Below, piece after piece: positions 75-53,092 of a DNA stretch of 64,000 bases (the stretch's first letter is position 1; every line of letters starts with the position of its first letter). The translations under genes were made by a program, and so were the position numbers. Location of the stretch: the NCBI GenBank assembly GCA_001782825.1, contig MFPS01000006.1, positions 84,553 through 148,552 on the forward strand, read 5' to 3'. The notes beneath the pieces are model-generated. The model did not search any database. It saw nothing but the letters and a program-made list of their open reading frames with translations, and had not been told where the DNA came from. Origin of the DNA: Candidatus Magasanikbacteria bacterium RIFCSPHIGHO2_01_FULL_33_34 (GTDB lineage Bacteria > Patescibacteriota > Patescibacteriia > Magasanikbacterales > UBA922).

Positions 75-974
75 TTAAAAATCTCCTGGATTTATATAGA
101 TATTGTCATCAAAAAAATTGATTATGGGTATAATTCTAAAATTATTAAACTCTGCTACTTGACTAAAGTATCTCAATTCTACACTCTCGGTTGAAAATGC
201 TGCCATTTTTTCAAAGTACAAATAAACATACCCTATGACTTGACTTCCATTTAATAACTCAACCAAAAATACCGGTTCCCAATAATTAAAAGCTGAACTG
301 TTTATTAAATCAAAAGAAATAACTGGAAAAGATAGGCCAGACAAAGATGCATCACTCACTATAAAATTATCTGCCTGAAACAAATTTCTTTCTGCAATAA
401 AATTCTTCACATCTGGCACATCATGAGCATCCACTGACTCCCATTCTATATTATCAATTACAAAATTTGTATTGGCTGGAAATGCATTACTCTCAACACC
501 AAATAATGCTACTGGTCTCTTTGATAAAGGAATAATAATAGCTGTCTCAATTTGACTTTCTATACCAGAATATACAAAATGATAAGTTACTTTAGCTATC
601 CATCTTTCATTTGGATTTTGTATACTTGCCACAAAATCATACATATTCTCAGAAGTAGCAAATACCCGAACATCTGCCACATTTAAATCTTGAGCTTTGT
701 AAATTTCTTGTATACTTGAATAATTCTGGTTTGTCTGCGTATATTTTGCCAAATATTCTTGATCATTCCAATAACCAAAAAAGAGATATTCCCCCCATTT
801 CCATAAACCAAACCCATAAAATACAACACACAATGTAATCAAAAAGCCTATAAAAATTTCGCGAAATAATTCTCTGTGAAGTAAATACCATGTACCAATT
901 TTTAATTGACGACTAGAAAATTGTCCACTCGTATCTACATACTGATCTATTTTACTTTTTTTGTGTTCTAACAT
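75..974 (-). CDS. Hypothetical membrane-anchored protein (single N-terminal TM helix), immediately downstream of the giant surface-protein gene
   Basis: 299-aa ORF. Hydrophobic segment FIGFLITLCVVFYGFGLW near the N-terminus. No recognisable catalytic motif. Confidence 0.5.
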   Translation of the reverse strand: MLEHKKSKIDQYVDTSGQFSSRQLKIGTWYLLHRELFREIFIGFLITLCVVFYGFGLWKWGEYLFFGYWNDQEYLAKYTQTNQNYSSIQEIYKAQDLNVADVRVFATSENMYDFVASIQNPNERWIAKVTYHFVYSGIESQIETAIIIPLSKRPVALFGVESNAFPANTNFVIDNIEWESVDAHDVPDVKNFIAERNLFQADNFIVSDASLSGLSFPVISFDLINSSAFNYWEPVFLVELLNGSQVIGYVYLYFEKMAAFSTESVELRYFSQVAEFNNFRIIPIINFFDDNIYINPGDF

Positions 975-1030: not shown

Positions 1031-1066
1031 TTATAAACAAAAGGAAAGAAAATAAATTTCTTTCCT
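1031..1066 (-). terminator. Rho-independent terminator after the giant gene (10-bp stem aggaaagaaa/tttctttcct, U-rich tail on the minus strand)
   Basis: Perfect inverted repeat 1042-1051/1057-1066, followed on the minus strand by tttgtttat. Confidence 0.5.
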
Positions 1067-1107: not shown

Positions 1108-4100
1108 TTATTGATAAAGTGGAAGAGTTGCAACTGTAGTTGGCAAAGCATTGTTATACAATGTTTGACCACTTCCGTTTACCAATGTTAATGTACCGCC
1201 ACGATTAGTATTACTAAATCTTACAGTAGCTACACTACCATTACTAAAGTTAATAGTAGCACCAGTTTCAGTAGCAGTATTATTAGATACTACTGAAGAG
1301 ACTGCATTGTCCACTCCAATCACATGCAAGAACAATGATTCAGTTCCATTAGTTCCTACAGCTTCCGCTCTCACACCGCTAAATACTGGCACAGTTGTCC
1401 AAGGAATTCCCGCTGGAGACAATCTCCAAACATCCGCTCTTTGTGAACCCTGTACAAAGGTTAATCTATTGCCAGAAATAATTGGTGGCGTTGACATCTG
1501 CAATTGGAAAATTCTAGAAACACTTGAAGAATTTGCAGCAGCCCGATCAAACAATACTACTGCCCCAGATTTAATAAACAATAATTCACGTTCTGATTTT
1601 ACCACTTCAGCTTTACCATTATATATTGGTCTAGTATTAGCCAACTCATAAGAGAACAAATTGCCATCAGACAAAGCTAGCACTTGAGATGGAGTAGCTC
1701 CCTCTACTTGCCTTACAGTATTTCCACCAGAACTAAATCGTACCAAATTGTGCATCTCTTCATCTAATTCAATACCACTATGAGATCTACGATTGGCATC
1801 ATCAAATAACCAAGTACCCGCAGAATTGAGCAAGAACGAACCTTGATCCCTATGTGCATGACTTTGATCATAAGGACCAGCCATCATATGCACGAATACT
1901 CCATTCTTTTCCCAAGAAGAACGAGAATAAAAATTACCACTTCCTGTACCAAAATAAGCAGTATTAATAGTAGAAAGAGGTCTAGTAGTAACAGATGGCC
2001 ATTCATTAATAAAATCTGACCAATAAGTAGCGCTATACTGTATTCTAGGAACATTAGATGAAGCAAGAAGTTGTTTGGCTACCCCAGAAATAGGCTCATT
2101 TGGATAAATAGAGATTAAATTTTGTAACAAATCTCTATGATAATCATAGAACTCTGCAGTTTGATCACGAGAATGATCACCAGTTGGAACTATTTTATCT
2201 AATGAAGGCATTACAGAATGAGTAAACCAAAACATTGTAGCTAGAGTATGAGGAGTCTGATTTGCAATACTCACACCTGTTGATTTTTCCCACCAGAAAT
2301 ATAACTTAAACAAACGTCTCAAAGCAGTTCCATAACCAGTACCCTCACGAGAACCACCTCCTGGTAAAATATTAAATGCTGGTATCAATTGATTGATAAT
2401 TTTTTCACCATAAAATTTATCCAGCCATTTTTGTGCTTCAGGATTATTGCCATAAGTAGCTAAACCTGTAAACATTGTCGCTTCCAAGAAAGAATAATAA
2501 TAATTATTATATGGATCATCAATTGACCAACCTGACCAAGGGTAAGAAACACCACCCCAACGAACATCTTCTGGATCACCCCATAAATTATTTAGAACTA
2601 AGTTCATATAATTAACCCATCTAGTTCTCTGTGATGGAGTTAACAAATCATATGCAAAGTCATAAACCAAAGCTATGTCGCCCAATTCATCACCTACTTC
2701 CAAAAAGCTGTCCCGTGATATTGTTGCTCGTTGACCAGCATTTATTCTAGCTTCTTCTTCGGCCACATATCTATCTATATTTGCTATAGCAAAATTTCCA
2801 TACCTCGCTTCACCAGTAAGACGGTACATCAATGCTGCACCCCAATTTGCAAATGCATAATTTGTACCTGGATGAGCTAATTCATTATCTATCATTGTTT
2901 TATATCTAGAAGCACCAGGAGAATTTGTAGTTAAAGCATTTTGTAATCTAGAAAGTGTAGCCGTGTCATTAATAAGAACATAAGGATGAGTAGTTGCTAA
3001 AGGTTTTACAGATGAAACCTGTACTACTGGAGTAGGTGTTGGTGTAGGTGTTGGAACTGGAGTTGGTTCTGGTACTGGCGCAATTATTGGTTCTGGCTCA
3101 GGCGCTGGTGCTGGCGCTGGCGCTGGGGTTGATTGAGCAACCAAATAATTTTCAACTGAATAACCATCGGCACCACTATCATAATTTATTTGCCACCAAT
3201 TATACCCACCTTGAGCTACTGGTCCACTTACTACCGATCCTTGTGATCCAGCTGATTGTGTTCCTAACAATGTACCAGTAATTGTAGGTGTTGATCTTAC
3301 ATTTAAGTTCGCAGTTGTCTGTACTCTTTGACCTACTGTAAACATCCCTAAAGTTGGAGTTGTAGTAATAACCGGGGTTGGAGTTGGTGTAGGAGTTGGC
3401 GTTACACTTGCCACAGAAGATAATCCACCATCATATCCAATGGTTGAACGCATCCACCAATTAAATTTACGAGGAGGGTTTACTCTATACTTTGGTAAAT
3501 AAGTTGTAGTACGAGTCGCATCAGTAAACGCAAACACTGCACAATTTCTCAACTGTGCTCTACGATTAATTAAAGCATCAGTCGATTGACCAAGTATCTG
3601 TTTTGCTTCTATAGCAAATGAAATTAAACCTGAAACATCCAAACAGTGATCAAAATCACCTTCACTTGGAGTTTCTGGGGTATAAGGACCAGTAGGACCA
3701 ACTAAATAATATGCAGCCGTTAATCCAGCATAAGTATCATCTATAACACTACCATCAAAATAAGCATTTTGTTCCATCCAATCTGCGTAACGAGAAACTT
3801 GTTGTAATACTTCAGTATTTCCAGTAAGAGAATAAAGTCTACGAGCAGCTTGGAAATATAAATTACTCATCCAAGGACTTGTGATTAACTGTGATGGACT
3901 ACTACCACCACCCTCATGCTGATCAATTGTTGTTAATGGCACTCCACCACCAAGGTTAGACCGTGAAGTCCATTGATTTACTAAAGCATTAATACGAGTA
4001 AGAGCTGATGGATCTCTTGTTAAATCATACCAAGATACCGCTGTTTCAAGAGCAAAACCAATTTCGCGTTCTGTCCATAAACCTCCACTTGAATAAGTGC

Positions 4101-6357
4101 TAGAAAAATCAGATACTGAAAAATTATAAATTCTTTGAGCAATTGAACGGTATTGATCATCACCAGTTTCTCTTTCATAAAGAAGAAAAGGAGTTACATA
4201 TCCGTATTTTCCATCTTGTTCTCCTGTTTTTGGAGTAAAGTAACCACCTGAACTTATGTGATTTCTATAATATTCAAAATCAGATAAAAATTGTTGATAC
4301 CAACGAGCTTTATCTGTAGATGATACAGAACGTTTATACATATAATAAGCAACTGAAGCTCTATCAAACAACCACGGTTCATAAATTGTTTCTCCATAAT
4401 TCCAATTTCCATAACCAGATGTAAATCTAGAATCAACATTATGTCCTTCAAAATTCCAATTTCTTGCCCAAGTTTCAGCAAATTTAACTAAAGGAGCATC
4501 TGCAGGGTCATTAAGATTGAATGGAGCAAAAGTAGGCACAGAACTACCAGTCAAGATAGGTACTGGAACTGGTGAAGGAGTTGGTGTAATGACTGGGGTT
4601 GGAGTTGGATCAAGTACTGGAACTGGAGTTGCCACAGCAAACAAATAATTTTCAACCGAATAACCATCGGCACCACTATCATAATTTATTTGCCACCAAT
4701 TATATCCACCTTGGGGCACTGGTCCACTAACTACTGTTCCTTGTGATCCAGCTGATTGATTTCCTAATAATGTACCAGTAGTTGCTGGTGTTGCTCTAAC
4801 ATTTAAGTTTACAGTTGTTTGAACTCGTTGACCTACTGTAAATACACCTGAAGTTGGAGCTGGTGTAGGTGTAGGAGTTGGTGTAATGACTGGATTTGGG
4901 GTTGGGGTTGGGGTTGGGGTTGGGGTTGGTGCTGGTTGAAAAACTGGCAAAGAAATACCAGGTAAAATTACTGAAACATCATCTAACATCAAACCTGTCA
5001 AAGGTTGACTACCTTCTTGGAAAATACCCACGCGAACTCTAGATAAATCACGAGTATTATCAAGAGGAAAACTAAGAGTAATACCTTTATTACCTAATGT
5101 ACTAGGTGCCTCAGAACAATTTTGTACAAATCCTCCACCAAGATACTCTATCAAACCACAAAATGAAATTTTAGATGTTGAATTTACAGTTACACGAACA
5201 CTAGCAGAAGCTGTAAAATGAGATGACCTTCTGGTAGTAAAAGTTGAAAAATCTCTACCACTCCAAAGCACACTATCTCCATAACCAGAAGTACCCACTA
5301 ATAAACTTCTATTACCATTAATTGGATTATTAGTAACCACAGAGACAGAAGTTCCAGATTGATTTGGTTCAAAATTTGAAAGACTATTTTCAAAACCAGA
5401 ATCTTCAAGCAAATTTACTCCTGTTGCAGTAGGCGCTGGTGGTAATGGCTCAGTTTTTTGTGCACTACAGCTAGCAGAAGTACCACCATTTATACCAACA
5501 CAAGTCCAATTCCAAGGACCTGATCCAGAAACAGAGCTAGACGCACCAGTAGAACATAAATTGGTAGTTGGTATACTTGATACAGTAGTACCATTAACTG
5601 AACCACAAACACCATTTACTAAAATTGGGGTTGGGGTTGGTTCTGGAGTTGGGGTAGGAGTTGGAGTTGGAGTTGGAGTTGGAGTTGGGGTTGGAGTTGG
5701 GGTTGGGGTTGGGGTAGGAGTTGGGGTTGGAGTTGGGGTTGGGGTTGGAGTTGGCGTAGGTTCTGGAGTTGGCGTAGGTGTTGTAGAAGTACCACCAGAC
5801 AAAACTACTGAAACATCATCAATCATTACTCCTGTCAAACGATCACTACCTTCTTGAAAAATACCAACACGAACTCGTTCTATGTCTTGAGAAATATCAA
5901 GCGGGAAAGTGACTGAAACAGTACCTTTATAACCCATTGAACCAGAAACTTCAGAACATTCTATAATATATTGTCCATTAGTATATTCTACTAAACCACA
6001 AAATCTAATACCTGAAGCAGAATCAACTGTAGCTCGAATTCTAACAGAACCAGTAAACTGAGAAAATCTTTTACTACTAAAATTTAAAAGATTGCTACCA
6101 GACCAAAGTACACTATCACCATATCCAGAAGTATTTATTAATAAACTTCTTGAACCATTGATTGGACTATCACTAGTTAAAGAAGCAGATGTTCCATTTT
6201 GATTGGGTTCAAAATTTGACATACTGGTCTCAAAGCCAGGATCACCAACTAAATTATCTGTAACTATATCAGCCCTAACAATAGTAAAAAATGATGGCGA
6301 ATAAAACACCAAACCAAATACTATCATTAAGGCAAAAAATATTAACGATTTTTTCAT
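1108..6357 (-). CDS. Giant secreted multidomain protein (1749 aa). Signal peptide, two CBM-like beta-sandwich modules, two SH3b-like modules, an alpha-rich domain, an alginate-lyase/heparinase II/III-like module (HxHxDxxSF motif) and a C-terminal beta-rich region, all joined by (TP)n/(AP)n linkers.
   Basis: N-terminus [20 protein letters not shown] is a signal peptide. The module VGDPGFE...IDDVSVVL is repeated (aa about 30-190 and 320-480). The module [50 protein letters not shown] is repeated twice. [12 protein letters not shown] matches the Hepar_II_III HxHxDxxSF signature, and an alpha/alpha-toroid-like region precedes it. Long TPTPTP linkers are present. Confidence 0.8.
4897..4935. repeat. 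(GGGGTT)5 hexanucleotide tandem repeat inside the giant gene (encodes a PTPTPT linker on the minus strand)
   Basis: ggggttggggttggggttggggttggggtt is read directly. Confidence 0.8.
5625..5790. repeat. About 165-bp imperfect hexanucleotide tandem repeat (GGNGTT units) encoding a (TP)n linker of about 50 aa
   Basis: ggggtt/ggagtt/ggcgta units repeated about 27 times. The opposite-strand GVGV ORF (5561..5857) is an artefact of this repeat. Confidence 0.85.
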
Positions 6358-23013: not shown

Positions 23014-26000
23014 TTAACTACAACCAAGTGAGTCACCACAGTTCAGACATTTATAACAAGCTCCATTTCTCACAGTAATATGACCACAGGTTGGACAAGC
23101 TGGCGCATCACCGTCCATACTACTAAGGGCTTGATCAACCACATCTACTGTATTAGTTTCCATTGTGATCAATAATTCTTGTTCTTCTAAAGATCTTTCA
23201 ATTACTATATTAGTTGCTTCTGATTTTAATTCCATTGTTTCTTGTTTGACACTACTATCCAAGATCTTTGCCATTTTCTCAAATCTATTTTTTTGAATTC
23301 CAGTTGGTTTTACTTGGACAAAATCAGTTCTTCCCAAATATTCCATTCCAAGTACACGAAATACAAAATCTAAAACCGAAGTACATATCTTGATATTCGG
23401 GTGATCTGTCATTCCAGCTGGTTCAAATCTAGTGAAAACAAAATTATTTACATATTTTTCAAGTGGAACACCATATTGCAATCCCATGGAAACTGATATA
23501 GCAAACATATTCAAAATACTTCTAAAGGCTGCGCCTTCTTTGTACATATCAATAAATATCTCGGCCAATCTACCATCTGGATATTCACCGGTACGAAGCC
23601 AAATTTGTTGATTTCCAATTTTAGCAGCTACAGTTATACCACTTCTCTTTGCTGGTACTTTTCTTTTTTCTCCATGCAAATATATTCTGTGATCAGTTAC
23701 TGTACCATCATTTTCATAAGTCGGCATCGCGTGTGAATCTGGGATATGTTGTTTCAAAAGTCTACTTGCTTCAAAAATTGCTCGGCTTATTTCAGAATCA
23801 TTTAGTGTTGCGCCAACTTCTTGAAGTTCACTTTCAATTGTAGCACTAGTTTCCACAACTACCGGCTCTTTCACTTCTTCTTTTTCTGATTCAGTTTTTT
23901 TGCTTGAAGTAGAGAGTGGTTGGCTAAGTTTACAGCCATCACGATATAGTGCCACTGCTTTCAAACCTTTGCGCCAAGATTCATTGTAAGCATGTTTAAT
24001 ATCATCAACCGTTACCTCATTTGGCATATTAATTGTTTTTGAAATTGCGCCTGACAAAAATGGTTGAACCGCAGCCATCATTCTCACATGACCCATATAA
24101 TGAATAGATCTCAAACCATTTTTTCCACAACGATTAGCACAATCAAATACTGGATAATGCTCTTGTTTCAAATGTGGAGCGCCCTCAATAGTCATTGTTC
24201 CACAAACATAATTATTTGCTTCATCAATTTGTTCTTGAGTAAAACCAAGAGCTTTAAGCATTTGAAAATTTGGATCATTGTATTGCTCCTTTGCAATTCC
24301 TACTCTTTGCATACACTCTTCACCAAGTGTCCAAACATTAAATACAAATTGGATTTCAAAAGCACTCTTCATCGCGCCTTTTAACTTTTCTAAGTCACCA
24401 TCAGTAAAACCTTTTTCCTTGAGAGTTGTAGTATTTATTTGTGGAGCGCTAGCTATATCAGCTGTGCCTTTTGTGTAATTCAAAATATCTTGTATCTCTG
24501 CATCTGTGTATTTCAAATTTTTCAAAGCTACTGGTACTGCTTCATTTACGATTTTAAAATATCCTCCACCAGCAAGTTTCTTAAATTTAACTAATGCAAA
24601 ATCTGGCTCAACTCCAGTAGTAGCACAATCCATCAAAAGACCAATCGTTCCAGTTGGCGCCAACAAAGTTGTTTGCGCATTCCTATATCCATATTTTTCA
24701 CCCCAAGAAAGTGCCTCATTCCAACTCTCTCGAGCAGCGGCCAACAAATATGCTGGGGCAAATTCTGGATCAATCCCAACTGGTTTAATCGTTACTTTTT
24801 CATATTCGCTATCAGCAACATTAAATGTAGCTCGTCTATGATTGCGCATTACTCTCAACATATCTTCTCGGTTGTAATCAAATTTTGGAAATGTCCCCAA
24901 AAATCTAGCCAACTCTGCACTTGTCCTATACGACTCACCTGTCAAAAGAGCGGTAACTGAACCAGCAAAAGCATAAGCTTCTTCTGATTCATATGGTATC
25001 CCCGATGTCAAAAGTACACTTCCCAAATTTGCATAACCCAATCCCAAAGTTCTGAAATCATAACTCATCTGAGCAATTTCTTTACTTGGGAATTGTGCCA
25101 TCAATACACTAACCTCAAGTACAACTGTCCAAAGACGAGTCGCATGTTTAAAAGCATCTACCAAAAATTCTTGTTTTTCTACATTGAAAAAATGAGCTAA
25201 ATTCAAAGATGCCAAATTGCAAGCAGTATTATCCAAAAACATATACTCACTACAAGGATTTGAAGCATTGATTCTGCCTGATTGTGGACAGGTGTGCCAA
25301 TCATTGATTGTACCGTCAAATTGCACTCCTGGATCAGCACAAGCCCAAGCAGCATAAGACACCTTGTCCCACAATTCTTGTGCTTTCATTGTCTTGCAAG
25401 CAGTATTATCAGTTCTCCACAACAAACTCCAAGAACCATCACGTTCCAAGGCTTCCATAAACTTATGTGGAACCCGAACTGAATTATTTGAATTTTGACC
25501 AGATACTGTCTGATACGCCTCACCTTCATAATCTGATGTATATCCCGCAACCATAAGAGCGGCCACTTTTTTTTCTTCTTCTACTTTCCAATTTATAAAT
25601 GCCTCAATATCAGGATGATCAAGATCAAGGACACACATCTTGGCAGCACGACGTGTGGTCCCGCCAGACTTGATGGCACCAGCAGACCTGTCACCGATTT
25701 TCAAAAAGCTCATCAAACCGCTAGATCGTCCGCCACCACTCAAAGGCTCACCATTGCCACGCAAACCTGAAAAATTTGTCCCTGTTCCAGAACCATATTT
25801 AAATAATCGAGCTTCACGAACCCACAAATCCATAATTCCACCTTCATTTACCAAATCATCTTTAACTGATTGAATAAAACAAGCATGTGGTTGTGGATGA
25901 GTATAGGCATCAGTAGATTTTGTAAGCACGCCTGTGTCTGGATCAATATAATGATGACCTTGAGCTGGACCATTTATTCCATAAGCCCAATAAATACCAG

Positions 26001-26514
26001 TATTAAACCACTGTGGTGAATTTGGCGCGGCCATTTGACGGAGTAACATTACTACAATCTCATCATAAAAAATCTGCGCATCTTTGGCACTTGCAAAATA
26101 CCCATACTTCTCACCCCAATATCTCCATGTGCCGGCCAACCTATGAATTGGTTGCTTTGCACTTGTTTCAGGCCCAAGCATGGGTGTCCCGTCATCGTGC
26201 ATTTTAATGGTACCATCAGCATTGTGTTGTGGTACGCCGGCTTTACGGAAATATTTTTGTGCCATAATATCAGTAGCCACTTGTGACCACTGTTTTGGTA
26301 TCTCAATATCTTTCATTTCAAATACAACCGTACCATCTGGTTCACGAATAACAGAACTTCTTTTTTCATATTCAACCATATCATACGCACTCTTTCCCTC
26401 TACACTAAATTTGCGCTGAAAACGCATAGCATTTTCATTGTATAAAAAATCTTTTTCACCTTCGGTTTGCCCAAGATGAAGATTTTGGATAAATTTTGAA
26501 TCGACAGGTCCCAT
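23014..26514 (-). CDS. nrdJ: Ribonucleoside-diphosphate/triphosphate reductase, class II (adenosylcobalamin-dependent) large single-chain form, with a C-terminal zinc ribbon
   Basis: RNR 10-stranded barrel active-site region NPCSEYMFLDNTACNLASLNL. The protein is 1166 aa with no ATP-cone plus NrdB context. C-terminal CPTCGH...CYKCLNCG. A PduO adenosyltransferase is encoded 1.3 kb away. Confidence 0.7.
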   Translation of the reverse strand: MGPVDSKFIQNLHLGQTEGEKDFLYNENAMRFQRKFSVEGKSAYDMVEYEKRSSVIREPDGTVVFEMKDIEIPKQWSQVATDIMAQKYFRKAGVPQHNADGTIKMHDDGTPMLGPETSAKQPIHRLAGTWRYWGEKYGYFASAKDAQIFYDEIVVMLLRQMAAPNSPQWFNTGIYWAYGINGPAQGHHYIDPDTGVLTKSTDAYTHPQPHACFIQSVKDDLVNEGGIMDLWVREARLFKYGSGTGTNFSGLRGNGEPLSGGGRSSGLMSFLKIGDRSAGAIKSGGTTRRAAKMCVLDLDHPDIEAFINWKVEEEKKVAALMVAGYTSDYEGEAYQTVSGQNSNNSVRVPHKFMEALERDGSWSLLWRTDNTACKTMKAQELWDKVSYAAWACADPGVQFDGTINDWHTCPQSGRINASNPCSEYMFLDNTACNLASLNLAHFFNVEKQEFLVDAFKHATRLWTVVLEVSVLMAQFPSKEIAQMSYDFRTLGLGYANLGSVLLTSGIPYESEEAYAFAGSVTALLTGESYRTSAELARFLGTFPKFDYNREDMLRVMRNHRRATFNVADSEYEKVTIKPVGIDPEFAPAYLLAAARESWNEALSWGEKYGYRNAQTTLLAPTGTIGLLMDCATTGVEPDFALVKFKKLAGGGYFKIVNEAVPVALKNLKYTDAEIQDILNYTKGTADIASAPQINTTTLKEKGFTDGDLEKLKGAMKSAFEIQFVFNVWTLGEECMQRVGIAKEQYNDPNFQMLKALGFTQEQIDEANNYVCGTMTIEGAPHLKQEHYPVFDCANRCGKNGLRSIHYMGHVRMMAAVQPFLSGAISKTINMPNEVTVDDIKHAYNESWRKGLKAVALYRDGCKLSQPLSTSSKKTESEKEEVKEPVVVETSATIESELQEVGATLNDSEISRAIFEASRLLKQHIPDSHAMPTYENDGTVTDHRIYLHGEKRKVPAKRSGITVAAKIGNQQIWLRTGEYPDGRLAEIFIDMYKEGAAFRSILNMFAISVSMGLQYGVPLEKYVNNFVFTRFEPAGMTDHPNIKICTSVLDFVFRVLGMEYLGRTDFVQVKPTGIQKNRFEKMAKILDSSVKQETMELKSEATNIVIERSLEEQELLITMETNTVDVVDQALSSMDGDAPACPTCGHITVRNGACYKCLNCGDSLGCS

Positions 26515-33166: not shown

Positions 33167-34966
33167 TTATTCTTTATTCTTCCTATTTTTTTTAATAATT
33201 TCATCCAATTTTTTGGTAGCTGTTTCTGTTTTACATCTAACCGGGCCTTTACCAGAAATATCTGCAACCGAAGGAGAAACAAAAGTTTTAAACCGCGTCC
33301 CACCATCTTTTTTAATCCCCATATTTATAGCATTGATATCAATACCATATTCAAGTCCCATGCTTGCCTGTCTAAAACCAGGTGATTGACCTTCTTGAAG
33401 AACTCTAACATGCCCTCTGCGACTAATAAAAGATTTAACCTCTGCATCATTACCGTCCCCGGTTGATTCCCTCACCTTTTCAGAGCACTTAATTTCTCGC
33501 AAATGACTCAATATAATATTTTTAATAAATTCACCTTTTCCAGAAAAATTTATAGGTTTTTGTGTTTTTGCATTTCTTGGAATAACATACTGATCCAAAA
33601 GCAACCTAAAAGTATAAAGCCCAATCTTAACATCAACGATAACTTCTTTTTTATTACTTTCATTTATAGTATAGGTGACTGTTTCAAAACCCAATTTTAA
33701 AAGCTCTGGATCTGTTATTTCAACCCTGTCACCTCTCGGACTCAATGAATATCTTGTATTATCCTGAATATCTTGTTTCAAAGAAACATTTAACTCACCC
33801 AATTCTTTCAAACCTTCTTCCAAATCCAAATTATCTGGCATTATTTGTGACAGCGTTTCCCAATATTCAGTATCCAAATGCAATTCGTCAATACCACCCT
33901 CAGTTTTTTTAAGAAATTCTAACAATCCACTATTTATTTCATCCTGAGATAATCCATTGGCAATACTAGTTGCTGTAGGTAATATAACTGAAAAAGTATC
34001 TTCATTATTTTCACTTTTTATAAGTTTTGCGCCTTCATTAGCAACAAATTTTCCTAATTCACCACTTTTAGTCAATGCTCTTAATAAACCAGTTTTATCA
34101 CCTCTTAAAATTTTTTCTATAGGGATATCATTTTCCTTATTATAAAGATCATTTAATTTTTCCATTCTTTTCAATATTATTATTCCCTCATCCTTACCAA
34201 CATCTTTCAACCTTCTATCAAACTCATTTTTAAATTCATCACTTTCATAAATATTAGCTTCAACCTCACTATAATTTTTAACAATATCTTCTAGTCCATC
34301 TGATTTTTGGCTATGCAAACCAATCGCCCCTTCTATTTCCAATCTTTTAGCTAAAATATCATTATCTGATGAAAATTTTGATATCACAAATAAAAGCGCT
34401 TGTCTTGATTCTGTTTTTAATATATCTGTCTTGTACGACAAAATTTCTACAAGTTTATCTGATATTTTTTTATTTCCTGAAAAAAATCCACCCACACAAA
34501 GTTCATAAATAAAATCTACCAACTCCTTTTCATTGCCCAATTTATTAATTTTATTAGTCAATAAAGCTTCAGCCAACTCACCATAAATTTGATCTTCAAC
34601 CATAACCGTCATCCATTTTTCCAAAACACCAGCATCTTTTGGCAAATTTACTTTCTTTAATTTCTCAATCAAAGAATTCTTAAAATCTTCTGACCTATAA
34701 CCAGGTATATCCGCTAACAATTCCAAAGAGTTAATAGTATCAATAGCTCTAGTAGGATCAACAACCAATTCCTTACTCAGTCTATCAATCATTGCTTTTT
34801 GCCTATCTCGCCCTTTAGCCTCTCCTTCTTTCCTCGGCTTATCTACAAAATTGTTAAACTCGCTGACCATATTCATTGATGAAGCTAGCTGAGGGGTAGA
34901 TAAAATAACAGAATCTTCTTCTGATTTTATATATTGTTCTGGATTATAGGAACCTTCAGTTCTCAT
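33167..34966 (-). CDS. Hypothetical 599-aa soluble protein with no detectable family
   Basis: No signal peptide or TM. Largely helical, Lys/Glu-rich. C-terminal Gly-rich region (GDGNDAEV...RRGHVRVLQEGQSPGFRQ...GKGPVRC). Bounded by a terminator and a 1-kb non-coding region. Confidence 0.6.
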   Translation of the reverse strand: MRTEGSYNPEQYIKSEEDSVILSTPQLASSMNMVSEFNNFVDKPRKEGEAKGRDRQKAMIDRLSKELVVDPTRAIDTINSLELLADIPGYRSEDFKNSLIEKLKKVNLPKDAGVLEKWMTVMVEDQIYGELAEALLTNKINKLGNEKELVDFIYELCVGGFFSGNKKISDKLVEILSYKTDILKTESRQALLFVISKFSSDNDILAKRLEIEGAIGLHSQKSDGLEDIVKNYSEVEANIYESDEFKNEFDRRLKDVGKDEGIIILKRMEKLNDLYNKENDIPIEKILRGDKTGLLRALTKSGELGKFVANEGAKLIKSENNEDTFSVILPTATSIANGLSQDEINSGLLEFLKKTEGGIDELHLDTEYWETLSQIMPDNLDLEEGLKELGELNVSLKQDIQDNTRYSLSPRGDRVEITDPELLKLGFETVTYTINESNKKEVIVDVKIGLYTFRLLLDQYVIPRNAKTQKPINFSGKGEFIKNIILSHLREIKCSEKVRESTGDGNDAEVKSFISRRGHVRVLQEGQSPGFRQASMGLEYGIDINAINMGIKKDGGTRFKTFVSPSVADISGKGPVRCKTETATKKLDEIIKKNRKNKE

Positions 34967-39435: not shown

Positions 39436-41628
39436 TCAATTATTTGTATAAAGATAATCTGTATAAATTTCCGTTACACCAAAATTTTTTACTAGATAAT
39501 CAAATATATTTTTGTCATTTATGGTATGTACATATACTGGGATACCTTTTTCTTTTATTTTGGTGCTCACTCCATTCTCTGCCACATCTTGAAACATAGC
39601 AACAGCCGACAAGCCTTCCATTTTTTCTACCCAACTATATACATCGTCTTTGCTTCCAGAATATGCATATAATGTCCAAATTATATTTTTGTATCCCAAT
39701 TCTTTCACTGCATTGTAATCCTCTGGATTATATATTTGTGGAATAATCCTATCAGCATACTCATCAAAACTTTCTTTTATTAATTTTAACCCATTTAGGT
39801 TAAAATTGGTGTCTTTAATATCTGTTACTATTTTAATTTTTTTATTATTTTCTAGCCAATCAACTAGTGTATCCAATGTACATATAGTAAATTCTTTTTT
39901 ATTTTGAACCAACTTTTCAAACTCCACCAAAGATACTCTCTCACTTTTTTGACCAAATAATTGTTCAAATGTTTTACCCCAATCATGAATACAAACCAAT
40001 TCCCCATCTGAAGTAAAAGATAAATCAATTTCCAAATATTCCATACCATTTTCAACACTATTTTGCATTGCTTCAAAACTATTGGTATAAACATTCTCAC
40101 CCAAACCACCACCCGCATGAGCTATTCTTTTTATTACAAAAATTTTTTCATTTTTTGTTTCAAGTCCCCACAAAAAATTCATGTCATTCCTCCAATATTT
40201 ATAAGCTCCAGCCAGTACTTCAACTCTATTTGGTTCAGCAATATCTGACATCAAATCCCTACCAAAACCTAATTTTGTTCTATATCCAATAAATGGCAAA
40301 ATCGTAGCTCCAATATCCATAGTAGATCCTTTTTGATTAACTTCTCTTTTTTCCAAATTTTCAAAATCAATCACCATAAACAAATTTTTTCTGTCCCCCT
40401 TTTTTAACATTTTTTCTGCCACATTTGGCAAAGCAATGTGATCTGAGGTAACTACCACTACAGTATCTTTGGCAAATGATGATTCAGATATTTTCTTTAT
40501 AAAATCCGAAATCAATTTATCAGAACAAGCCACCGCATTAAGCATAGAATTTTTACCATTTTTATATTTTATATTATTACATTCTGGCGAGGATTCTCCA
40601 TAAGGATGATGTGTATCCAAAGTCAATACAAACATTGCCTGCTTCTCTTTTTTTGCTGATAATTCAGAAAAATGCTGATAAGCTAACTCAAACAAACTAT
40701 CATCATGAATACCCCAGCTATGTCTAGGTATAGACTGGTCAACCATATCCTCTAATTTAATCCTTCCGTACACTTCATCAAAATTATGATTTTCAAAAAA
40801 TAAATCTTTTCTCCCAAACTTTAATTCTGCCCCACCAAAGTATGTCAAATAATAATTTTCATTTTTTAACAAATCACTCAAACAAATAGCATTTGGCAAA
40901 AATTTTGGCGTATCTACAAAATTCTGATTTCCCGATGGTGTAATCAAAGGTATTCCACACTGACTTCCAACTATTCCACCTATAGTCCATCCATTTCCCT
41001 CCAAAGTCTCTACCGATGAAAAATATGTACTCTGATTACGCCATTTTTTCAATTCTGACATCAAGTCAGGAAAAATATTCTCATCAAAATATGTTTGTTC
41101 CAGACTTTCACCATAGATAAATATAAGATTTTTAGTTTTACCAATTTTTTCTAAATTAACTTCACTATAATAATCATCAAATTCATATTTAAAATTTTTA
41201 TTATCTGGTGTAATCAAAATATCATACAAATTTAATGACATCGGACTAAAAATAAAAGAAGCAAAAACTGACGGATAAGCTAATAACAAAAACTTCTTTT
41301 GAAATTCTCTTTTTTGTGTTCTATGATATATTTTAAAAATAAAAAATACACAAATACTAATCAATAAAACAAACCATACCATTATTTTCCAAAAACTAAA
41401 TATACCTGCACCTTCTACGCCATATTTCATATGATACAAAACTGCCGTGTTAATACCATTCCCCGTCAAAGAATCAAAAACTAAATATATTAAATTATAA
41501 ATACTAAATAAAAAAAGAATCAAAGCAAAAACAATACTTTGAACTTTTTTGGCCCCTGATAAATAAAATGTATATGAAGCAATTATGATTAATAATGATA
41601 TAAAAAATAATAAAATTAATACACTCAT
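39436..41628 (-). CDS. Fusion membrane enzyme: N-terminal 5-TM, LtaS-like sulfatase/phosphoglycerol-transferase domain, and C-terminal glycerophosphodiester phosphodiesterase (GDPD) domain
   Basis: LtaS/alkaline-phosphatase superfamily motifs NLIFIYGESLE, TIGGIVGSQCG, LTLDTHHPYG and VVVTSDH. GDPD motifs IAHAGGGLGENVYTNSFEA and EIDLSFTSDGELVCIHDW. Confidence 0.75.
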   Translation of the reverse strand: MSVLILLFFISLLIIIASYTFYLSGAKKVQSIVFALILFLFSIYNLIYLVFDSLTGNGINTAVLYHMKYGVEGAGIFSFWKIMVWFVLLISICVFFIFKIYHRTQKREFQKKFLLLAYPSVFASFIFSPMSLNLYDILITPDNKNFKYEFDDYYSEVNLEKIGKTKNLIFIYGESLEQTYFDENIFPDLMSELKKWRNQSTYFSSVETLEGNGWTIGGIVGSQCGIPLITPSGNQNFVDTPKFLPNAICLSDLLKNENYYLTYFGGAELKFGRKDLFFENHNFDEVYGRIKLEDMVDQSIPRHSWGIHDDSLFELAYQHFSELSAKKEKQAMFVLTLDTHHPYGESSPECNNIKYKNGKNSMLNAVACSDKLISDFIKKISESSFAKDTVVVVTSDHIALPNVAEKMLKKGDRKNLFMVIDFENLEKREVNQKGSTMDIGATILPFIGYRTKLGFGRDLMSDIAEPNRVEVLAGAYKYWRNDMNFLWGLETKNEKIFVIKRIAHAGGGLGENVYTNSFEAMQNSVENGMEYLEIDLSFTSDGELVCIHDWGKTFEQLFGQKSERVSLVEFEKLVQNKKEFTICTLDTLVDWLENNKKIKIVTDIKDTNFNLNGLKLIKESFDEYADRIIPQIYNPEDYNAVKELGYKNIIWTLYAYSGSKDDVYSWVEKMEGLSAVAMFQDVAENGVSTKIKEKGIPVYVHTINDKNIFDYLVKNFGVTEIYTDYLYTNN

Positions 41629-41633
41629 AATTT

Positions 41634-42995
41634 TTAACGAATATATTGAAGAGGATTGTTTCTTGCTCCGCCAACACGAACTTCAAAGTGAATATGCGGG
41701 CCAGTCGATTGTCCAGTGGAACCCATTGCGGCAATTGTTTGTCCTTGGACAACATCCTCACCGACATCCACATAAAGCTTACTGGCATGACCATACAAGG
41801 TAGTAACTCCACCACCATGATCAATAATTACATAACAACCATAACCACCATTCCAACCACATTGTGAACGAATTACAGTTCCTGCACGAGCAGCATATAA
41901 CGGTGTTCCTACTGGACCCGCAATATCGAGCCCCGTATGACGCCAGCCATAATACTGTGTAATACGTTTAACTGATGTTGGCCAAATATATCGTGATCCA
42001 GCTGGCGCAGTAATTGATGGTGGTGGCGCAGCAATTGAACTAAATGATAAACTGTAACTAGATGTATAAACTGGTTGTGGTTTACTACCGTCAGGGATAA
42101 TTAATCTTTCTCCCACCACAATATCCGCCCCACCTTCTTGTAATTTATTAAATTTAACAATATCATCTACTTTTGCATCATAAAGTTTAGCAATTTTTGA
42201 CAAATTATCACCTGACACAACTTTATGCAAAACACCATTTGTTGGCAAAATTGCCAATTTATCCCCTGGACGAATATAAGAACGAGAAGTTAAATCATTT
42301 GCCCACAAAACAGTCAAAACATTCAAACCATAATCTTGCGCAATTTTACCAACCACCTCTCCAGGTTGTACTACATGATAAATAATCTCACTTCGCTTTT
42401 GTCCAGATGGTGAAATTGTAGGCAATTCTGATCCGGGTAAAATTATTGGTTTATTAACGGCTGAACCACCCGCACTAACACCGGCAATTTCTTGTGTTTC
42501 TAAAGTTGATCCGATCCCAGCTACTCCAGTCGTATCTAAAACCACTGAACCTTCTCTCCAAGTTCTAACTTCTTTTTGAGGTAATTGCTTTAAATCAATC
42601 TCAAACTCCTCAACACCAAAATTTTGATCACCCGGACCAACTAAAACATACAACAATGTATTTTGACCATGAATTTTTTCCGTAGTTTTAGTATAAAGTT
42701 TGCTATGCGGTACCATAACAACAACAGCGATCACAAAAATTACAATCTGCAAAGCCCAACGTTGTCCAAAAAAATCAATAAATCTAACATTTTTTGAAAT
42801 ATTAAGCCGTTTAAAAAGCCTCTTTTTTATAATAAAAAAACCTTTATACAAATAAAAGCCCACAGTTTTACTGTACAATGTATATACTTTGCTTAAAAGT
42901 TTAATGAATTTATTAATAATGACAACAAGAGCCCGCTTTACATAAATTAAACTGCGCAAAAAATATAATAATGCTTTTAACCCTATGCGTTTCAT
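41634..42995 (-). CDS. LysM-domain M23 family peptidoglycan endopeptidase (membrane-anchored)
   Basis: N-terminal TM, LysM domains (GDKLAILP, GERLIIPDG), and the M23 active site HTGLDIAG...GYGCYVIIDHGGG...HIHFEV. Confidence 0.8.
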   Translation of the reverse strand: MKRIGLKALLYFLRSLIYVKRALVVIINKFIKLLSKVYTLYSKTVGFYLYKGFFIIKKRLFKRLNISKNVRFIDFFGQRWALQIVIFVIAVVVMVPHSKLYTKTTEKIHGQNTLLYVLVGPGDQNFGVEEFEIDLKQLPQKEVRTWREGSVVLDTTGVAGIGSTLETQEIAGVSAGGSAVNKPIILPGSELPTISPSGQKRSEIIYHVVQPGEVVGKIAQDYGLNVLTVLWANDLTSRSYIRPGDKLAILPTNGVLHKVVSGDNLSKIAKLYDAKVDDIVKFNKLQEGGADIVVGERLIIPDGSKPQPVYTSSYSLSFSSIAAPPPSITAPAGSRYIWPTSVKRITQYYGWRHTGLDIAGPVGTPLYAARAGTVIRSQCGWNGGYGCYVIIDHGGGVTTLYGHASKLYVDVGEDVVQGQTIAAMGSTGQSTGPHIHFEVRVGGARNNPLQYIR

Positions 42996-50089: not shown

Positions 50090-53000
50090 TTAATTAATGG
50101 TAACAGTTGTTTTTCCACCCTCAATTCGTGTATTGTTTTTTAGAATAATTTCAGTTGTTAATAAATAAACTCCGGTATCAGGTTTGTTATTCCAATTAAA
50201 AACTAATTGATTATTAAAAATATTGGAAAAATCTGTAATTGATTGCATGACTTTTCTGTTTTCATTATTTTTTTCAACATAAATTAAAATTTCTTTAATT
50301 TCTTCTAATTTAAATGGGTTTAAGAAAAGCACCCGAGGAAAATCATTTTGACTTAATGTTTGATTTTGTTGTGGCCAAGAAACATTAGGTGGTTCAACAC
50401 CCGCCTTTAAGGTAAACGGAATACTTTGTTGCAGTTGGTTACCAACATCATCTTCAACTATTATGTGCAGAGTATGATCACCATTTTCTAATGTCCGTGC
50501 ATAATAGTTTAAATTGAAAGGATGTTGACTGATTGTACCAACAAATTTTTCATCTATTTTGTATTGTACTTTAGTGACCCCACGTGGTGCAGATACACGG
50601 ATATCAGTATCAATTTGTCTTGAGAATAAAGTAGTGCTTGGGGTTGGAAAAACAACATTTAAGCTTGGTATTAATTCTAAGGAATGAATATCGTCATATT
50701 CACTTGGTGGCTCATCAAAGACGACTTCCCAATTAGGGTTTTCTTCTTTGTTTCTGGTTATCCAGTCTTGTATAGCGTTTTCCCATACTGTATATTGCTG
50801 ATCTATTGTTGGGTCAATCGGTATTGGACCTCTAGGATCATCTTTGTCAACATAGTGTAAAATGGAGTGTGGCGGAACATACGTGCGCTCAACTATATAT
50901 GATTGAGGGGTTGAACTAGATGCAAGTTTGTTGGTAACCTTGTCTACTAATAGTGTTATTCCAGAGCCATTTGATCCGCGTAAAACTGGTTTTTCAGCAT
51001 CGTTTGCTGGTGGATTTGGGAATTCTTCAGCCTTGGTTTCAGCAAGGGACTCTCGCATAAATCTATTCCAAATTGGCGCCGCTACTTTGCTTCCGCCGTA
51101 ACCTTTTTTCATAGGTGTATTATTGGTGTTACCAACCCAGACTCCAGTTACTAAACTTGGAGTATACCCGATTGTCCATGCATCAACATATGCATTGGTA
51201 GTTCCAGTTTTGACAGCAACAGGTCTGTCTGGGAGTGTGAGAATTCCACCAGCCCCAAATGCAAAAGCTCTGGATTCATCATCGCTTAATACATTAGAAA
51301 TAGTTGCAGCAATTTCTTCTTCAAGCACTTTTTCGCCTTTACTTTTTTTCCACTCATAAATAACTTCTCCATTATGGTCTTCCACTTTTAAAATACTTTC
51401 TGGTATTTGACGTATACCTTCATTTGCAAATATGCCATAAGCACTGACATGGTCAATCAATTTAACTTCACCACCACCTAAAACAAGAGATAATCCAAAG
51501 TCGCCTTCGCCAAGGGTTGTATAGCCAAGACGTTCAGCAAAATCCACGCCTTTTTGCGCGCCAACTAAATAAAGTGTTTTAACAGCAGGGATATTTAATG
51601 ATCCTTGTAAGGCTTTGCGCATAGTAACTAGGCCATGCTCTTCAAGATCATAGTTTTTTGGTGCATAATCATCTCCAGATATCGCAAAATTGGTTTCAAC
51701 ATCAAATAAAACTGTCCCCGGTGTGTAACCTTTTTCAAAAGCAGCGGTATAAATTATTGGCTTGAACGATGATCCTGGTTGGCGTTTTCCAAGAGTTGCG
51801 ACATTAAATTGACCATCAATTTCATCATCAAAGAAATCTCGTGAACCTACCATTGCTAAAATATGACCGGTTTTTGGATCAATTGCTACTAGTGAAGCAT
51901 TATTTGCGTTTGCTTCTTCAAAATATTTTTCACTTTCTTCTTTTATTACGGTTTCAGCAATTTGTTGTTTGTCCCAATCAAGAGATGTGATTACTTTGAG
52001 TCCACCAGTGTCAACTATTTGTTCTCCATAGGTTTCTACTAATTTTTCTTTAACATACAAAACAAAATGAGGCGCTTTGATAGAGCCAAAATCTTGAGCC
52101 AAGTTAATTTCCATTGCTTGGTTTTCATCCGCTTCTTCTCGGGTTATATAATTTTCTTCAAACATTCTTTCTAGTACAAAATTGCGACGCAATTTTAATG
52201 CATAGTGGTCGGTTAAATATTTGGAAGGAGCTTTTGGCATCCCTGCTAAAATAGCAATTTCGTTTAAGGTTAGTTCAGAAACAGTTTTGTTAAAATAACT
52301 TTGAGAAGCAGACTCAATTCCATAATTGGTTGAGCCATAAGGTATTTCATTAAAATAGATTTTTAGAATTTGATCTTTGGAATATTTTTGCTCTAATCTG
52401 ATTGAGAGAATAATTTCTTTGATTTTTCTAGTATAGGTTCTTTCATTGGTTAGAATGGCATTTTTTACAAGTTGTTGAGTGAGAGTGGATGCGCCAGCAC
52501 CTAATCTGCTTTTACCAATAACTCCATAAACAACTGATCGAAAAATACTAAGAGGACGGATTCCTTTATGTTCATAAAAAGCCGTATCTTCTGTAGCAAT
52601 CACCGCTTTTATAAGTAAATCAGGTATTTGATCCAAGTTGACCATAGTTCTTTTTTCATCGGCGAAAATTTCATAAAGTAGGTGCTCACCGGTATTATCA
52701 TATATTTTGGTACTTTCAGCTATTTGGCGGTCGGTTAGTCTGTCTGGATCAGGCAGATCTCGGCTTACCCAGGCTATCAAGATCGTCATACCAAGCATAC
52801 CAAATATAGAAAGAGAAACAAATAATATAATAATTTTACGCCTAAACTCTTTTTTTGTTTCTTCAGCCATATGTGGACGTTTTTTCCATAAACTAAAAAA
52901 ACCAACTAAAATCCACCAGATTAGTTTAAATGGTGATGAAATAAGCAAGATTAGAATATTTTGATTAGCAGACTTATTTTTTTTATCCTTGGAATCTTTC

Positions 53001-53092
53001 TTTTTTGGTTTTTCTCCATGAGAAATGGTTTTTCTTTCTGGTTCATCGCTTATATAGCCGTAAGTTCTTCTTTTGAGTGGCGGAATTGGCAT
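50090..53092 (-). CDS. ponA: Class A penicillin-binding protein (bifunctional transglycosylase/transpeptidase, PBP1A-type) with a roughly 300-aa C-terminal extension
   Basis: N-terminal TM. GT51 motifs (ATEDTAFYEHKGI, RLEQKYSKDQILKIYFN). TP motifs SSFKP, SLN and KTGTT. 1000 aa. Confidence 0.9.
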   Translation of the reverse strand: MPIPPLKRRTYGYISDEPERKTISHGEKPKKKDSKDKKNKSANQNILILLISSPFKLIWWILVGFFSLWKKRPHMAEETKKEFRRKIIILFVSLSIFGMLGMTILIAWVSRDLPDPDRLTDRQIAESTKIYDNTGEHLLYEIFADEKRTMVNLDQIPDLLIKAVIATEDTAFYEHKGIRPLSIFRSVVYGVIGKSRLGAGASTLTQQLVKNAILTNERTYTRKIKEIILSIRLEQKYSKDQILKIYFNEIPYGSTNYGIESASQSYFNKTVSELTLNEIAILAGMPKAPSKYLTDHYALKLRRNFVLERMFEENYITREEADENQAMEINLAQDFGSIKAPHFVLYVKEKLVETYGEQIVDTGGLKVITSLDWDKQQIAETVIKEESEKYFEEANANNASLVAIDPKTGHILAMVGSRDFFDDEIDGQFNVATLGKRQPGSSFKPIIYTAAFEKGYTPGTVLFDVETNFAISGDDYAPKNYDLEEHGLVTMRKALQGSLNIPAVKTLYLVGAQKGVDFAERLGYTTLGEGDFGLSLVLGGGEVKLIDHVSAYGIFANEGIRQIPESILKVEDHNGEVIYEWKKSKGEKVLEEEIAATISNVLSDDESRAFAFGAGGILTLPDRPVAVKTGTTNAYVDAWTIGYTPSLVTGVWVGNTNNTPMKKGYGGSKVAAPIWNRFMRESLAETKAEEFPNPPANDAEKPVLRGSNGSGITLLVDKVTNKLASSSTPQSYIVERTYVPPHSILHYVDKDDPRGPIPIDPTIDQQYTVWENAIQDWITRNKEENPNWEVVFDEPPSEYDDIHSLELIPSLNVVFPTPSTTLFSRQIDTDIRVSAPRGVTKVQYKIDEKFVGTISQHPFNLNYYARTLENGDHTLHIIVEDDVGNQLQQSIPFTLKAGVEPPNVSWPQQNQTLSQNDFPRVLFLNPFKLEEIKEILIYVEKNNENRKVMQSITDFSNIFNNQLVFNWNNKPDTGVYLLTTEIILKNNTRIEGGKTTVTIN

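Follow-up and report, generated by a model that had tools for sequence, protein, structure and literature searches.

Overall organization of the gene and its product

The DNA described here, a stretch of 64,000 nucleotides referred to below as the window, comprises positions 84,553 to 148,552 of contig MFPS01000006.1 (assembly GCA_001782825.1) from Candidatus Magasanikbacteria bacterium RIFCSPHIGHO2_01_FULL_33_34, a member of the candidate phyla radiation (CPR) whose cell is tiny and probably symbiotic. Near the start of the window lies a gene on the minus strand (1108..6357) for a modular protein that ends in a domain with the fold of the heparinase II/III-type polysaccharide lyases and carries a second, enzyme-like barrel domain in its middle. 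These two domains, and the kind of polysaccharide on which they might act, are the subject of this paper. Coordinates are positions in the window unless amino acids (aa) are named, and all parts of the gene are on the minus strand.

The gene encodes 1749 aa followed by a stop codon in a single uninterrupted open reading frame (ORF), as the initial annotation of this DNA had it. The same exact protein is encoded on nine contigs from independent assemblies, one of them longer than 1 Mb, which excludes a frameshift or an assembly artefact. Its N-terminus (aa 1-29, 6271..6357), which begins with MKK, continues with a hydrophobic core and ends in VRA before an Asp, reads by eye as a putative Sec-type signal peptide, in agreement with the earlier assignment. 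The protein is therefore predicted to be secreted, and no obvious anchor is seen in its sequence. Directly after the stop codon lies a terminator-like hairpin with a T-run (1042..1066, minus strand), a consensus match only; since the counts of promoter and terminator matches in the region do not exceed the shuffled expectation, only the position of this hairpin after the stop codon is used here.

Full-length orthologues with 68-77% identity are present in six further genomes. Three of these (L008, L009 and L012) are labelled Candidatus Magasanikbacteria, while the other three are metagenome-assembled genomes (MAGs) labelled 'uncultured Gammaproteobacteria' (L010, CAZHYG010000004.1; L011, CAZLNR010000003.1; L013, CAZUFD010000015.1) with a GC content of 40-43%. 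The downstream set of Magasanikbacteria housekeeping neighbours is found in L010 and L013 and the upstream set in L010 and L011. Because of these shared neighbours, the GC content and the complete CPR-type protein, the gammaproteobacterial label of the three MAGs is probably wrong. The order of the domains is constant across the orthologues, with the binding modules followed by the barrel and then by the lyase-like domain, and the copy number of the small modules differs, from one to six for a module with four Cys residues and one or two for an SH3b-like module.

Fold and homology of the C-terminal domain

The C-terminal domain (aa 1111-1749, about 640 aa) consists of two halves, whose limits were taken from its AlphaFold model and from Foldseek. 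In the model (pLDDT 90.7, pTM 0.88), which was computed from a 57-sequence alignment of relatives (A1) that also served as the search profile, a helical alpha/alpha toroid (residues 22-340 of the model; aa 1132-1450, 2008..2964) precedes the strands of a beta-sandwich (residues 357-627 of the model; aa 1467-1737, 1147..1959). The toroid and sandwich that had been proposed for this region are thus borne out. At least 1163 relatives of the domain are present in a large protein database, most of them 620-700 aa long, 45-50% identical, devoid of Pfam domains and annotated as 'hypothetical protein'.

The top matches of the model in the PDB by Foldseek are all lyases of the toroid-plus-sandwich fold or dermatan sulfate (DS) epimerase 1. 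They are the polysaccharide lyase (PL) family 15 enzyme Atu3025 (E=3.3e-21), PL35 GAGase II (6e-20), DS-epimerase 1 (7.6e-20) and PL21 heparinase II (1.2e-19), followed by a PL15 exo-heparinase and members of PL17, PL39, PL12 and PL33, with overall E values of 3e-21 to 1e-13 at 12-17% identity. The A1 profile leads to the same group of proteins in the PDB: heparinase II (E=1.1e-19), GAGase II (8khv, 4.1e-11), GAGase VII (4.4e-9), heparinase III (5.4e-9) and Atu3025 (3e-4). With the single sequence as query all eight PDB matches are heparinase II/III proteins, but they are marginal (E about 1e-3). Since the structural and the profile matches are all of this fold, the assignment of the domain to the heparinase II/III-type fold and superfamily, which takes in PL8, PL12, PL15, PL17, PL21, PL35 and PL39, is correct at the level of the predicted fold and of the profile.

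Curated models draw a different boundary. PF07940 (Hepar_II_III_C) and PF05426 (Alginate_lyase) do not match the window protein even at E<=10, and no lyase model of Pfam matches the domain, its sole match being DUF4962 (E=0.005). The NCBIfam models HepB (NF045571) and HepC (NF045573), whose cut-offs are 600 and 700 bits, score 14.1 and 12.4 bits, respectively. When the members of A1 are scanned singly, weak matches to Hepar_II_III_C appear in 42 of the 57 (best 1.8e-5) and to Alginate_lyase in 27 of the 57 (best 1.6e-7). The kinship with heparinase II/III and PL12, PL15 and PL17 enzymes suggested in the initial annotation therefore stands for the fold and the family profile and does not extend, on the curated models, to a named PL family; none of the Pfam models named there (PF07940, PF05426 and CBM4_9) matches this protein. 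The lack of a match holds for the single sequence, and the fold is not an unrelated one. By every curated model the domain falls outside PL12, PL15, PL17 and PL21, and its sequences form an unannotated family.

The presence of DS-epimerase 1 among the best matches raises the question of whether the domain cuts its polymer at all. It might be a uronate C5-epimerase, or another polymer-modifying enzyme, that remodels the chain. DS-epimerase 1 (6hzn) is the fourth-best Foldseek match, on a par with the lyases, and has the same fold and His/Tyr/His chemistry; many relatives of the domain also lie within exopolysaccharide (EPS) synthesis clusters, where a modifying enzyme would fit. All other close structural and profile matches are lyases, however, and in two phages described below the domain is fused to tail-fibre or tail proteins, where depolymerization is the known role. 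There is also little evident gain in secreting an epimerase for a CPR cell without EPS genes clustered at this locus. A remodelling enzyme is accordingly judged improbable.

Proposed active site of the lyase-like domain

The lyases with a toroid and a sandwich share a recurring catalytic set, which consists of a Tyr, a His from the sandwich domain and a neutralizing Asn (PMC12088678). In GAGase II these residues are Asn191-Asn192, Tyr246 and His401, and activity disappeared entirely when Asn192, Tyr246 or His401 was replaced by Ala (PMC12088678). Alginate-active enzymes have a His beside the Asn, while enzymes specific for glycosaminoglycans (GAGs) have an Asn there (PMC12088678).

In the window protein the sandwich His is the residue most directly located. 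A ten-residue motif (aa 1499-1508, 1834..1863), already recognized as an HxHxD signature in the initial annotation, aligns with NHQHQDAGAF of heparinase II; in the HMMER alignment SHAHRD (aa 1499-1504) is placed on NHQHQD, so that H1500 corresponds to the catalytic His406 and H1502 to the Zn ligand His408. Both His residues are invariant in all relatives examined, including the divergent ones. The Zn site may have its counterparts in H1502, D1520 and H1536, of which the last two are missing from the most divergent relatives. For the toroid half the situation is different. With a trimmed profile (A3), HMMER aligned only a 25-residue stretch of heparinase II among the solved lyases, so the catalytic Tyr and Asn are not mappable by sequence alignment.

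Candidates for these residues come from conservation and spacing. The motif NNYYY (aa 1284-1288, 2494..2508) would provide the neutralizers of the carboxylate, N1284 and N1285, and an invariant 11-residue loop (aa 1333-1343, 2329..2361) contains the proposed catalytic Tyr1342. The distance from N1285 to Y1342 is 57 residues and that from Y1342 to H1500 is 158, compared with 54 and 155 in GAGase II. N1284/N1285, Y1342 and H1500 are therefore proposed as the catalytic set. Since an Asn-Asn pair is found where alginate lyases carry a His, a glucuronate-type rather than an alginate-type substrate is proposed.

The residues that are invariant down to 33% identity, viral relatives included, are N1285, Y1286, Y1287, Y1288, E1338, Y1342, H1370, D1394, R1397, D1405, Y1406, R1408, R1479, H1500, H1502, Q1505, R1540, Q1550, Y1579, R1590 and D1604; N1284 is replaced by Asp in one viral relative. 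This bears on the idea that the protein is purely an adhesin whose two enzyme-like domains are catalytically dead and only bind glycans. Repeats and linkers are usual in adhesins, and no curated enzyme model reaches its threshold. Invariance from CPR bacteria to viral relatives of 33% identity nevertheless extends to the proposed catalytic residues and to about 25 other polar ones, a pattern of active enzymes that speaks against a dead protein, and of the explanations weighed here the adhesin is the least probable.

The middle barrel domain

The initial annotation described the middle of the protein as an alpha-rich domain. The AlphaFold model of aa 601-985 (3403..4557) agrees with this (pLDDT 89.7, pTM 0.90) and adds what had been missed, namely that the domain is an enzyme-like (alpha/alpha)6 barrel, paired with the lyase-like domain. 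Its Foldseek matches are generic six-hairpin proteins at a TM score of about 0.5, among them glycoside hydrolase (GH) families GH76, GH8, GH127 and GH9 and the AGE epimerases; the nearest folds are those of AGE epimerases and of the unsaturated uronyl hydrolases of GH105 and GH88, with 5-11% identity. AGE enzymes work in the cytoplasm, and their substrates are mono- or disaccharides. The profile of the domain yielded only chance matches among PDB sequences, to the ribonucleotide reductase beta subunit.

The barrel family is small, comprising 473 of 1.84 billion representative clusters at E<=1e-3. Its divergent members retain, without exception or nearly so, D665, R666, Y697, D715, K717, W761-T762-E763-R764, H814, S827, W829, Y884, H904, D907, R949, R958, R963 and K964, a set rich in Arg, Lys, His and Asp/Glu. 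To judge from the alignment, such conservation is what an active enzyme whose pocket is strongly basic and presumably binds anions would show, and the middle domain is probably a second catalytic unit.

Two assignments to known families were considered. The GH127 model of Pfam scores 26.0 bits, above its cut-off of 24.9, but covers only profile positions 53-159 of 376. GH127 enzymes, which are beta-L-arabinofuranosidases, are marked by a Cys nucleophile and a Cys3-Glu zinc site; because the profile is covered only in part and the barrel family has no conserved Cys, GH127 chemistry is excluded. For GH88 and GH105 the fold agrees, but Glyco_hydro_88 scores 12.8 bits against the required 26.6 and matches weakly in only 6 of 52 relatives of the domain.

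Co-occurrence of the two domains

Apart from the CPR orthologues, the barrel is followed by the lyase-like domain within one chain in three divergent proteins, P0269 (1657 aa), P0273 (2033 aa) and P0274 (1306 aa). The second of these, a phage tail fibre, has Phage-tail-repeat and Big_9/cadherin domains at its N-terminus, and the P0273 gene (locus L092) is flanked by genes for a Phage_Tail_Tip protein and an M15 endolysin on a 52-kb contig that also encodes ribonucleotide reductase, ThyX and MazG. In a second phage (L006/L007) a 991-aa protein combines the N-terminus of a tail protein (phrog_3995) with a lyase-like C-terminus, and genes for barrel homologues lie on either side of it. Altogether seven IMG/VR contigs carry the lyase-like domain. 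A PHROGs scan of another IMG/VR locus, L085, identified an integrase only and was otherwise uninformative.

The two domains also meet in a cellular EPS locus. In the Burkholderiales MAG JAUYNU010000120.1 (L005, 1..21883) a single EPS cluster combines two barrel genes and a lyase-like gene with genes for a Wzx-type flippase, a polysaccharide deacetylase, a family 2 glycosyltransferase (GT2), methyltransferases, an acyltransferase-3 and two CapK-like (CapK_C) proteins. The cluster looks complete and is a candidate producer of the polysaccharide substrate.

The two domains thus recur together, but the link is not an obligate one. Their repeated fusion and adjacency suggest that they act on one polymer.

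The N-terminal modules and linkers

The signal peptide is followed by two homologous modules, A (aa 30-188, 5794..6270) and B (aa 312-470, 4948..5424), which are 58% identical across 154 aa (E=2e-59) and for which a carbohydrate-binding role is putative. Their homology, noted in the initial annotation, is clear; the fold of a carbohydrate-binding module (CBM) claimed for them was found neither by Pfam nor by the PDB profile search. Module A has no Pfam match, module B only a weak one to Mann_GBD_bact (E=0.021), and a profile of the N-terminal module had no match in the PDB and led to no known CBM. The NLxxDPGFE at the start of the modules and the DDVSV at their end resemble CBM4_9. The module is restricted to the clade, with only nine relatives among 5.8 billion proteins in the profile search. 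Its sole hint outside the CPR clade is a weak match to module A (28% over 129 aa, E=8e-6) at 3309..3653 of the viral contig L093 (IMGVR_UViG_3300010429_000449), about 4 kb upstream of a barrel homologue with 58% identity.

Between modules A and B lies a mini-module (aa 246-301, 5455..5622) with four Cys residues (251, 268, 286 and 297), not the six counted earlier, which matches no Pfam family. In the window and in the orthologues L009, L010, L012 and L013 it follows the 55-aa consensus PVNGVCGSxNNTxxSSAPTxNLCSxGxASxVxGSGPWxWxCxGxNGGTxAxCSAQ. In L009 and L013 it takes the place of the second SH3b-like module.

The two SH3b-like modules flank the barrel (aa 503-575, 4633..4851, and aa 1003-1075, 3133..3351). 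As had been proposed, they form a pair, with 87% mutual identity, but the Pfam model SH3_3 (PF08239) stays below its 27-bit cut-off, with 24.0 bits for the whole protein over two stretches and 18.2 bits for module 1 alone.

The Thr-Pro and Ala/Glu-Pro linkers are present as described in the initial annotation. The long (Thr-Pro)n linker (aa 189-245, 5623..5793) corresponds in the DNA to an imperfect tandem repeat with a 6-bp unit and 26.5 copies (5625..5783), a likely site of length variation, yet the protein is the same in all nine assemblies. An (Ala/Glu/Thr-Pro)n linker, read from the sequence, leads from the second SH3b-like module towards the lyase-like domain (aa 1076-1110, 3028..3132). 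The matches to PARP, TonB and SslE in the Pfam and NCBIfam scans arise from these low-complexity linkers and are spurious.

Distribution and gene neighbourhood

A scan of GTDB with one genome per species found 399 stretches that encode a relative of the lyase-like domain; taxonomy and neighbour counts refer to the best 80 of these. The carriers are mainly Burkholderiales (Rhizobacter, Piscinibacter, Aquabacterium, Ideonella and Rhodoferax), Anaeromyxobacter and other Myxococcota, Anaerolineales and Sphingomonadales. After clustering with an overlap filter against antisense ORFs in loci of high GC content, the recurrent neighbours of the lyase-like family in these free-living bacteria are genes of EPS synthesis: CapK-like genes in 12 loci, acyltransferase-3 in 7, two clusters of GT4 in 7 and 6, two clusters of polysaccharide deacetylases in 6 and 5, and GT2 in 5. 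In Burkholderiales, Myxococcota and Anaerolineales the lyase-like relatives lie inside EPS clusters, which the barrel joins in a few Burkholderiales loci only.

The CPR loci have housekeeping neighbours only. In the present genome these are gyrB and FtsW, the latter lying just beyond the start of the window, where it is seen in L001; near the orthologues they are YebC, RuvC, SpoU, TrxB, Rpe, RpiB and PfkB. The initial annotation drew attention to a membrane protein directly downstream. An ORF of 299 aa for such a protein exists (75..974), but it is no conserved partner, for both this ORF and gyrB are absent near all orthologues examined. Because of this absence and its position behind the terminator-like hairpin, the 299-aa ORF is not considered part of the system.

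The presence of FtsW bears on a further explanation, according to which the protein serves the cell's own envelope and remodels wall or surface glycans, such as teichuronic-acid-like polymers, during growth or division. SH3b-like modules commonly bind the cell wall (SH3_3 is weak here), the close relatives P0003 and P0170 carry PG_binding_1, and the window also holds a class A penicillin-binding protein and a LysM-M23 peptidase. The neighbourhood is not conserved among the orthologues, however, and the fact that these domains also occur on tail fibres of phages and in EPS clusters of Gram-negative bacteria favours an extracellular polysaccharide over a wall polymer peculiar to CPR bacteria as the target. 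A role in the cell's own envelope is accordingly held to be still less probable than that of a polymer-remodelling epimerase.

More weight is due to the possibility that the enzyme is used in foraging, degrading free polysaccharide of the environment or of the biofilm matrix to feed a fermentative cell, with no role directed at a particular host. Such a use would suit a protein that is predicted to be secreted and has no obvious anchor. The neighbours of the orthologues include genes of the pentose-phosphate pathway and for a sugar kinase (Rpe, RpiB and PfkB), a lactate dehydrogenase is encoded nearby in the window, and the matrix EPS of the family's carriers would be abundant in groundwater and sludge. 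Within 10 kb of the gene in the seven CPR loci, on the other hand, there is no transporter, no unsaturated-uronate isomerase or reductase and no other utilization gene. The parallels with phage tail fibres favour access over nutrition, and the SH3b-like and other binding modules suggest retention at a surface. Foraging alone is therefore considered unlikely, even though it ranks ahead of the other three alternatives; each of the four is less well supported than the reading set out in the next section.

Proposed function

The reading preferred here, at a probability of about 0.54, is that the protein is a secreted modular depolymerase for an acidic polysaccharide of bacterial surfaces or matrices, which most likely cuts the exopolysaccharide of another bacterium. 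The last point follows from the use of the domains on phage tail fibres and the presence of their relatives in EPS clusters, findings which also support the degradation of host or matrix glycans suggested in the initial annotation. The three settings in which the domains occur, the synthesis clusters of EPS producers, the tails of phages and a reduced CPR cell, would fit one class of polymer. Synthesis operons that encode enzymes cleaving their own polymer have precedents in AlgL and BcsZ.

The protein might work as follows. After export by the Sec pathway, the clade-specific N-terminal modules, the 4-Cys module and the SH3b-like modules would grip a glycan or cell-wall surface, and the Pro-rich linkers would set these binding modules apart from the enzyme domains. 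The C-terminal domain would then cleave a polymer containing uronic acid by beta-elimination, in which Asn1284 and Asn1285 may neutralize the carboxylate while Tyr1342 and His1500 serve as acid and base. The middle barrel would be a partner enzyme on the same polymer, maybe a glycosidase of the GH105/GH88 kind that trims the products of the lyase. In this way a small CPR cell could cut through the exopolysaccharide of a neighbour for access or food.

Several observations weigh against a depolymerase of this kind. Where the chemistry is concerned, no curated lyase model of Pfam or NCBIfam reaches its threshold on this protein, whether the whole ORF or its modules are scanned, and DS-epimerase 1 matches the structure as well as the lyases do. 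N1285 and Y1342 are equated with catalytic residues from spacing and conservation, and the loop that holds the Tyr was modelled with less confidence than the rest (pLDDT about 75-79). For the middle domain, the nearest folds in the model comparison are cytoplasmic sugar epimerases or isomerases, and catalytic residues could not be placed in the domain. As to the partnership of the domains, both are found within 10 kb in only about 5 of about 80 non-CPR loci, and 13 IMG/VR contigs carry the middle barrel alone. No genes of uronate utilization flank the gene or its orthologues. Finally, both the binding role of the N-terminal modules and the use against a host are putative.

A wider and more speculative form of the depolymerase reading, considered unlikely, is that the barrel and the toroid-sandwich domain are the founders of two new families of carbohydrate-active enzymes, one of lyases and one of hydrolases or lyases, which form a dedicated cassette for one widespread acidic exopolysaccharide of bacteria associated with flocs and sheaths. 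The makers of the polymer would be the Rubrivivax-Leptothrix group of Burkholderiales, Anaeromyxobacter and other Myxococcota, and Anaerolineales. In these producers the enzymes would remain part of the synthesis clusters, in their phages they would be carried on tail fibres, and Magasanikbacteria-like CPR cells would have turned them into a phage-like device for reaching a host. If so, the specificity of the enzymes would predict the hosts of these CPR bacteria.

To our knowledge, the hosts and attachment mechanisms of groundwater CPR bacteria are unknown for almost all of them. The present protein is a concrete, expressible candidate for a means of penetrating the coat of a partner, and the distribution of the enzyme family, 399 GTDB species and their phages, gives a testable shortlist of such partners. 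Two sizeable families annotated as 'hypothetical' are also brought to attention, the lyase-like one with more than 1100 relatives and the barrel with about 470 representative clusters; their characterization could define new CAZy families and supply enzymes that disperse biofilms or flocs. An ordinary foraging lyase would be a routine result.

Relationship to known lyases and depolymerases

Each of the known enzymes with a toroid and a sandwich shares some features with the window protein and differs in others. The PL35 enzymes GAGase II (8khv) and GAGase VII (8khw) have the same two-domain fold, with Foldseek rank 2 at E=6e-20, and in GAGase II the Asn-Asn, Tyr and His (N191-N192, Y246 and H401) occur at nearly the same spacing. 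They differ in sequence (14-17% identity), in source organisms and in fusion partners, and the family described here is found in the context of EPS clusters and phage tails. Heparinase II of Pedobacter heparinus (PL21, 2fuq/2fut) is the best profile match (E=1e-19), with three aligned stretches. In it His202 serves as a second base, where the present family has an invariant Asn at the position expected by spacing. Its chain comprises 747-749 residues, and its precursor 772 aa.

The oligo-alginate lyase Atu3025 (3a0o), the exo-heparinase (6ljl), Alg17c (PL17), Dp0100 (PL39) and heparinase III (PL12) match the model with E values of 3e-21 to 1e-15 and TM scores of 0.55-0.74. The enzymes of PL15, PL17, PL39 and PL12 share the architecture of toroid and sandwich and the catalysis by Tyr and His, the latter being proposed for the window protein, but are only 12-15% identical, and the alginate-type members carry a His next to the Asn where the present family has an Asn.

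The closest parallel in architecture is offered by the phage tail fibres. The distal part of P0273 contains both domains in the same order, and phage depolymerases follow the same logic, with binding modules leading through linkers to a head that cuts glycans. The CPR protein differs in having a signal peptide in place of an N-terminus for attachment to the virion, and in its clade-specific N-terminal modules. Most characterized phage depolymerases are beta-helix trimers and not toroid lyases. While the fold and the chemistry are already known, the two families, their pairing and their phage-like form in a CPR genome appear to be undescribed; no specific account of this family emerged from a search of the literature on PEP-CTERM or floc EPS clusters, on CPR and on Magasanikbacteria.

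Other genes in the window

Further genes on the minus strand of the window concern the cell envelope and nucleotide metabolism. Two are cell-wall genes, one for a 453-aa protein with two LysM domains and Peptidase_M23 (41634..42995) and the other for the class A penicillin-binding protein of 1000 aa, which has a C-terminal Big_7 domain (50090..53092). Another gene (39436..41628) encodes a 730-aa protein in which a Sulfatase/LtaS-like domain is joined to a glycerophosphodiester phosphodiesterase (GDPD) domain and which may act on an envelope polymer or on lipid headgroups. An ORF of 599 aa (33167..34966) has no Pfam match at E<=1e-4. The gene at 23014..26514 encodes a class II, B12-dependent ribonucleotide reductase, the barrel of which is found in two stretches, with TSCPD near the C-terminus; at 1166 aa the protein is unusually long and may contain an insertion or an intein.

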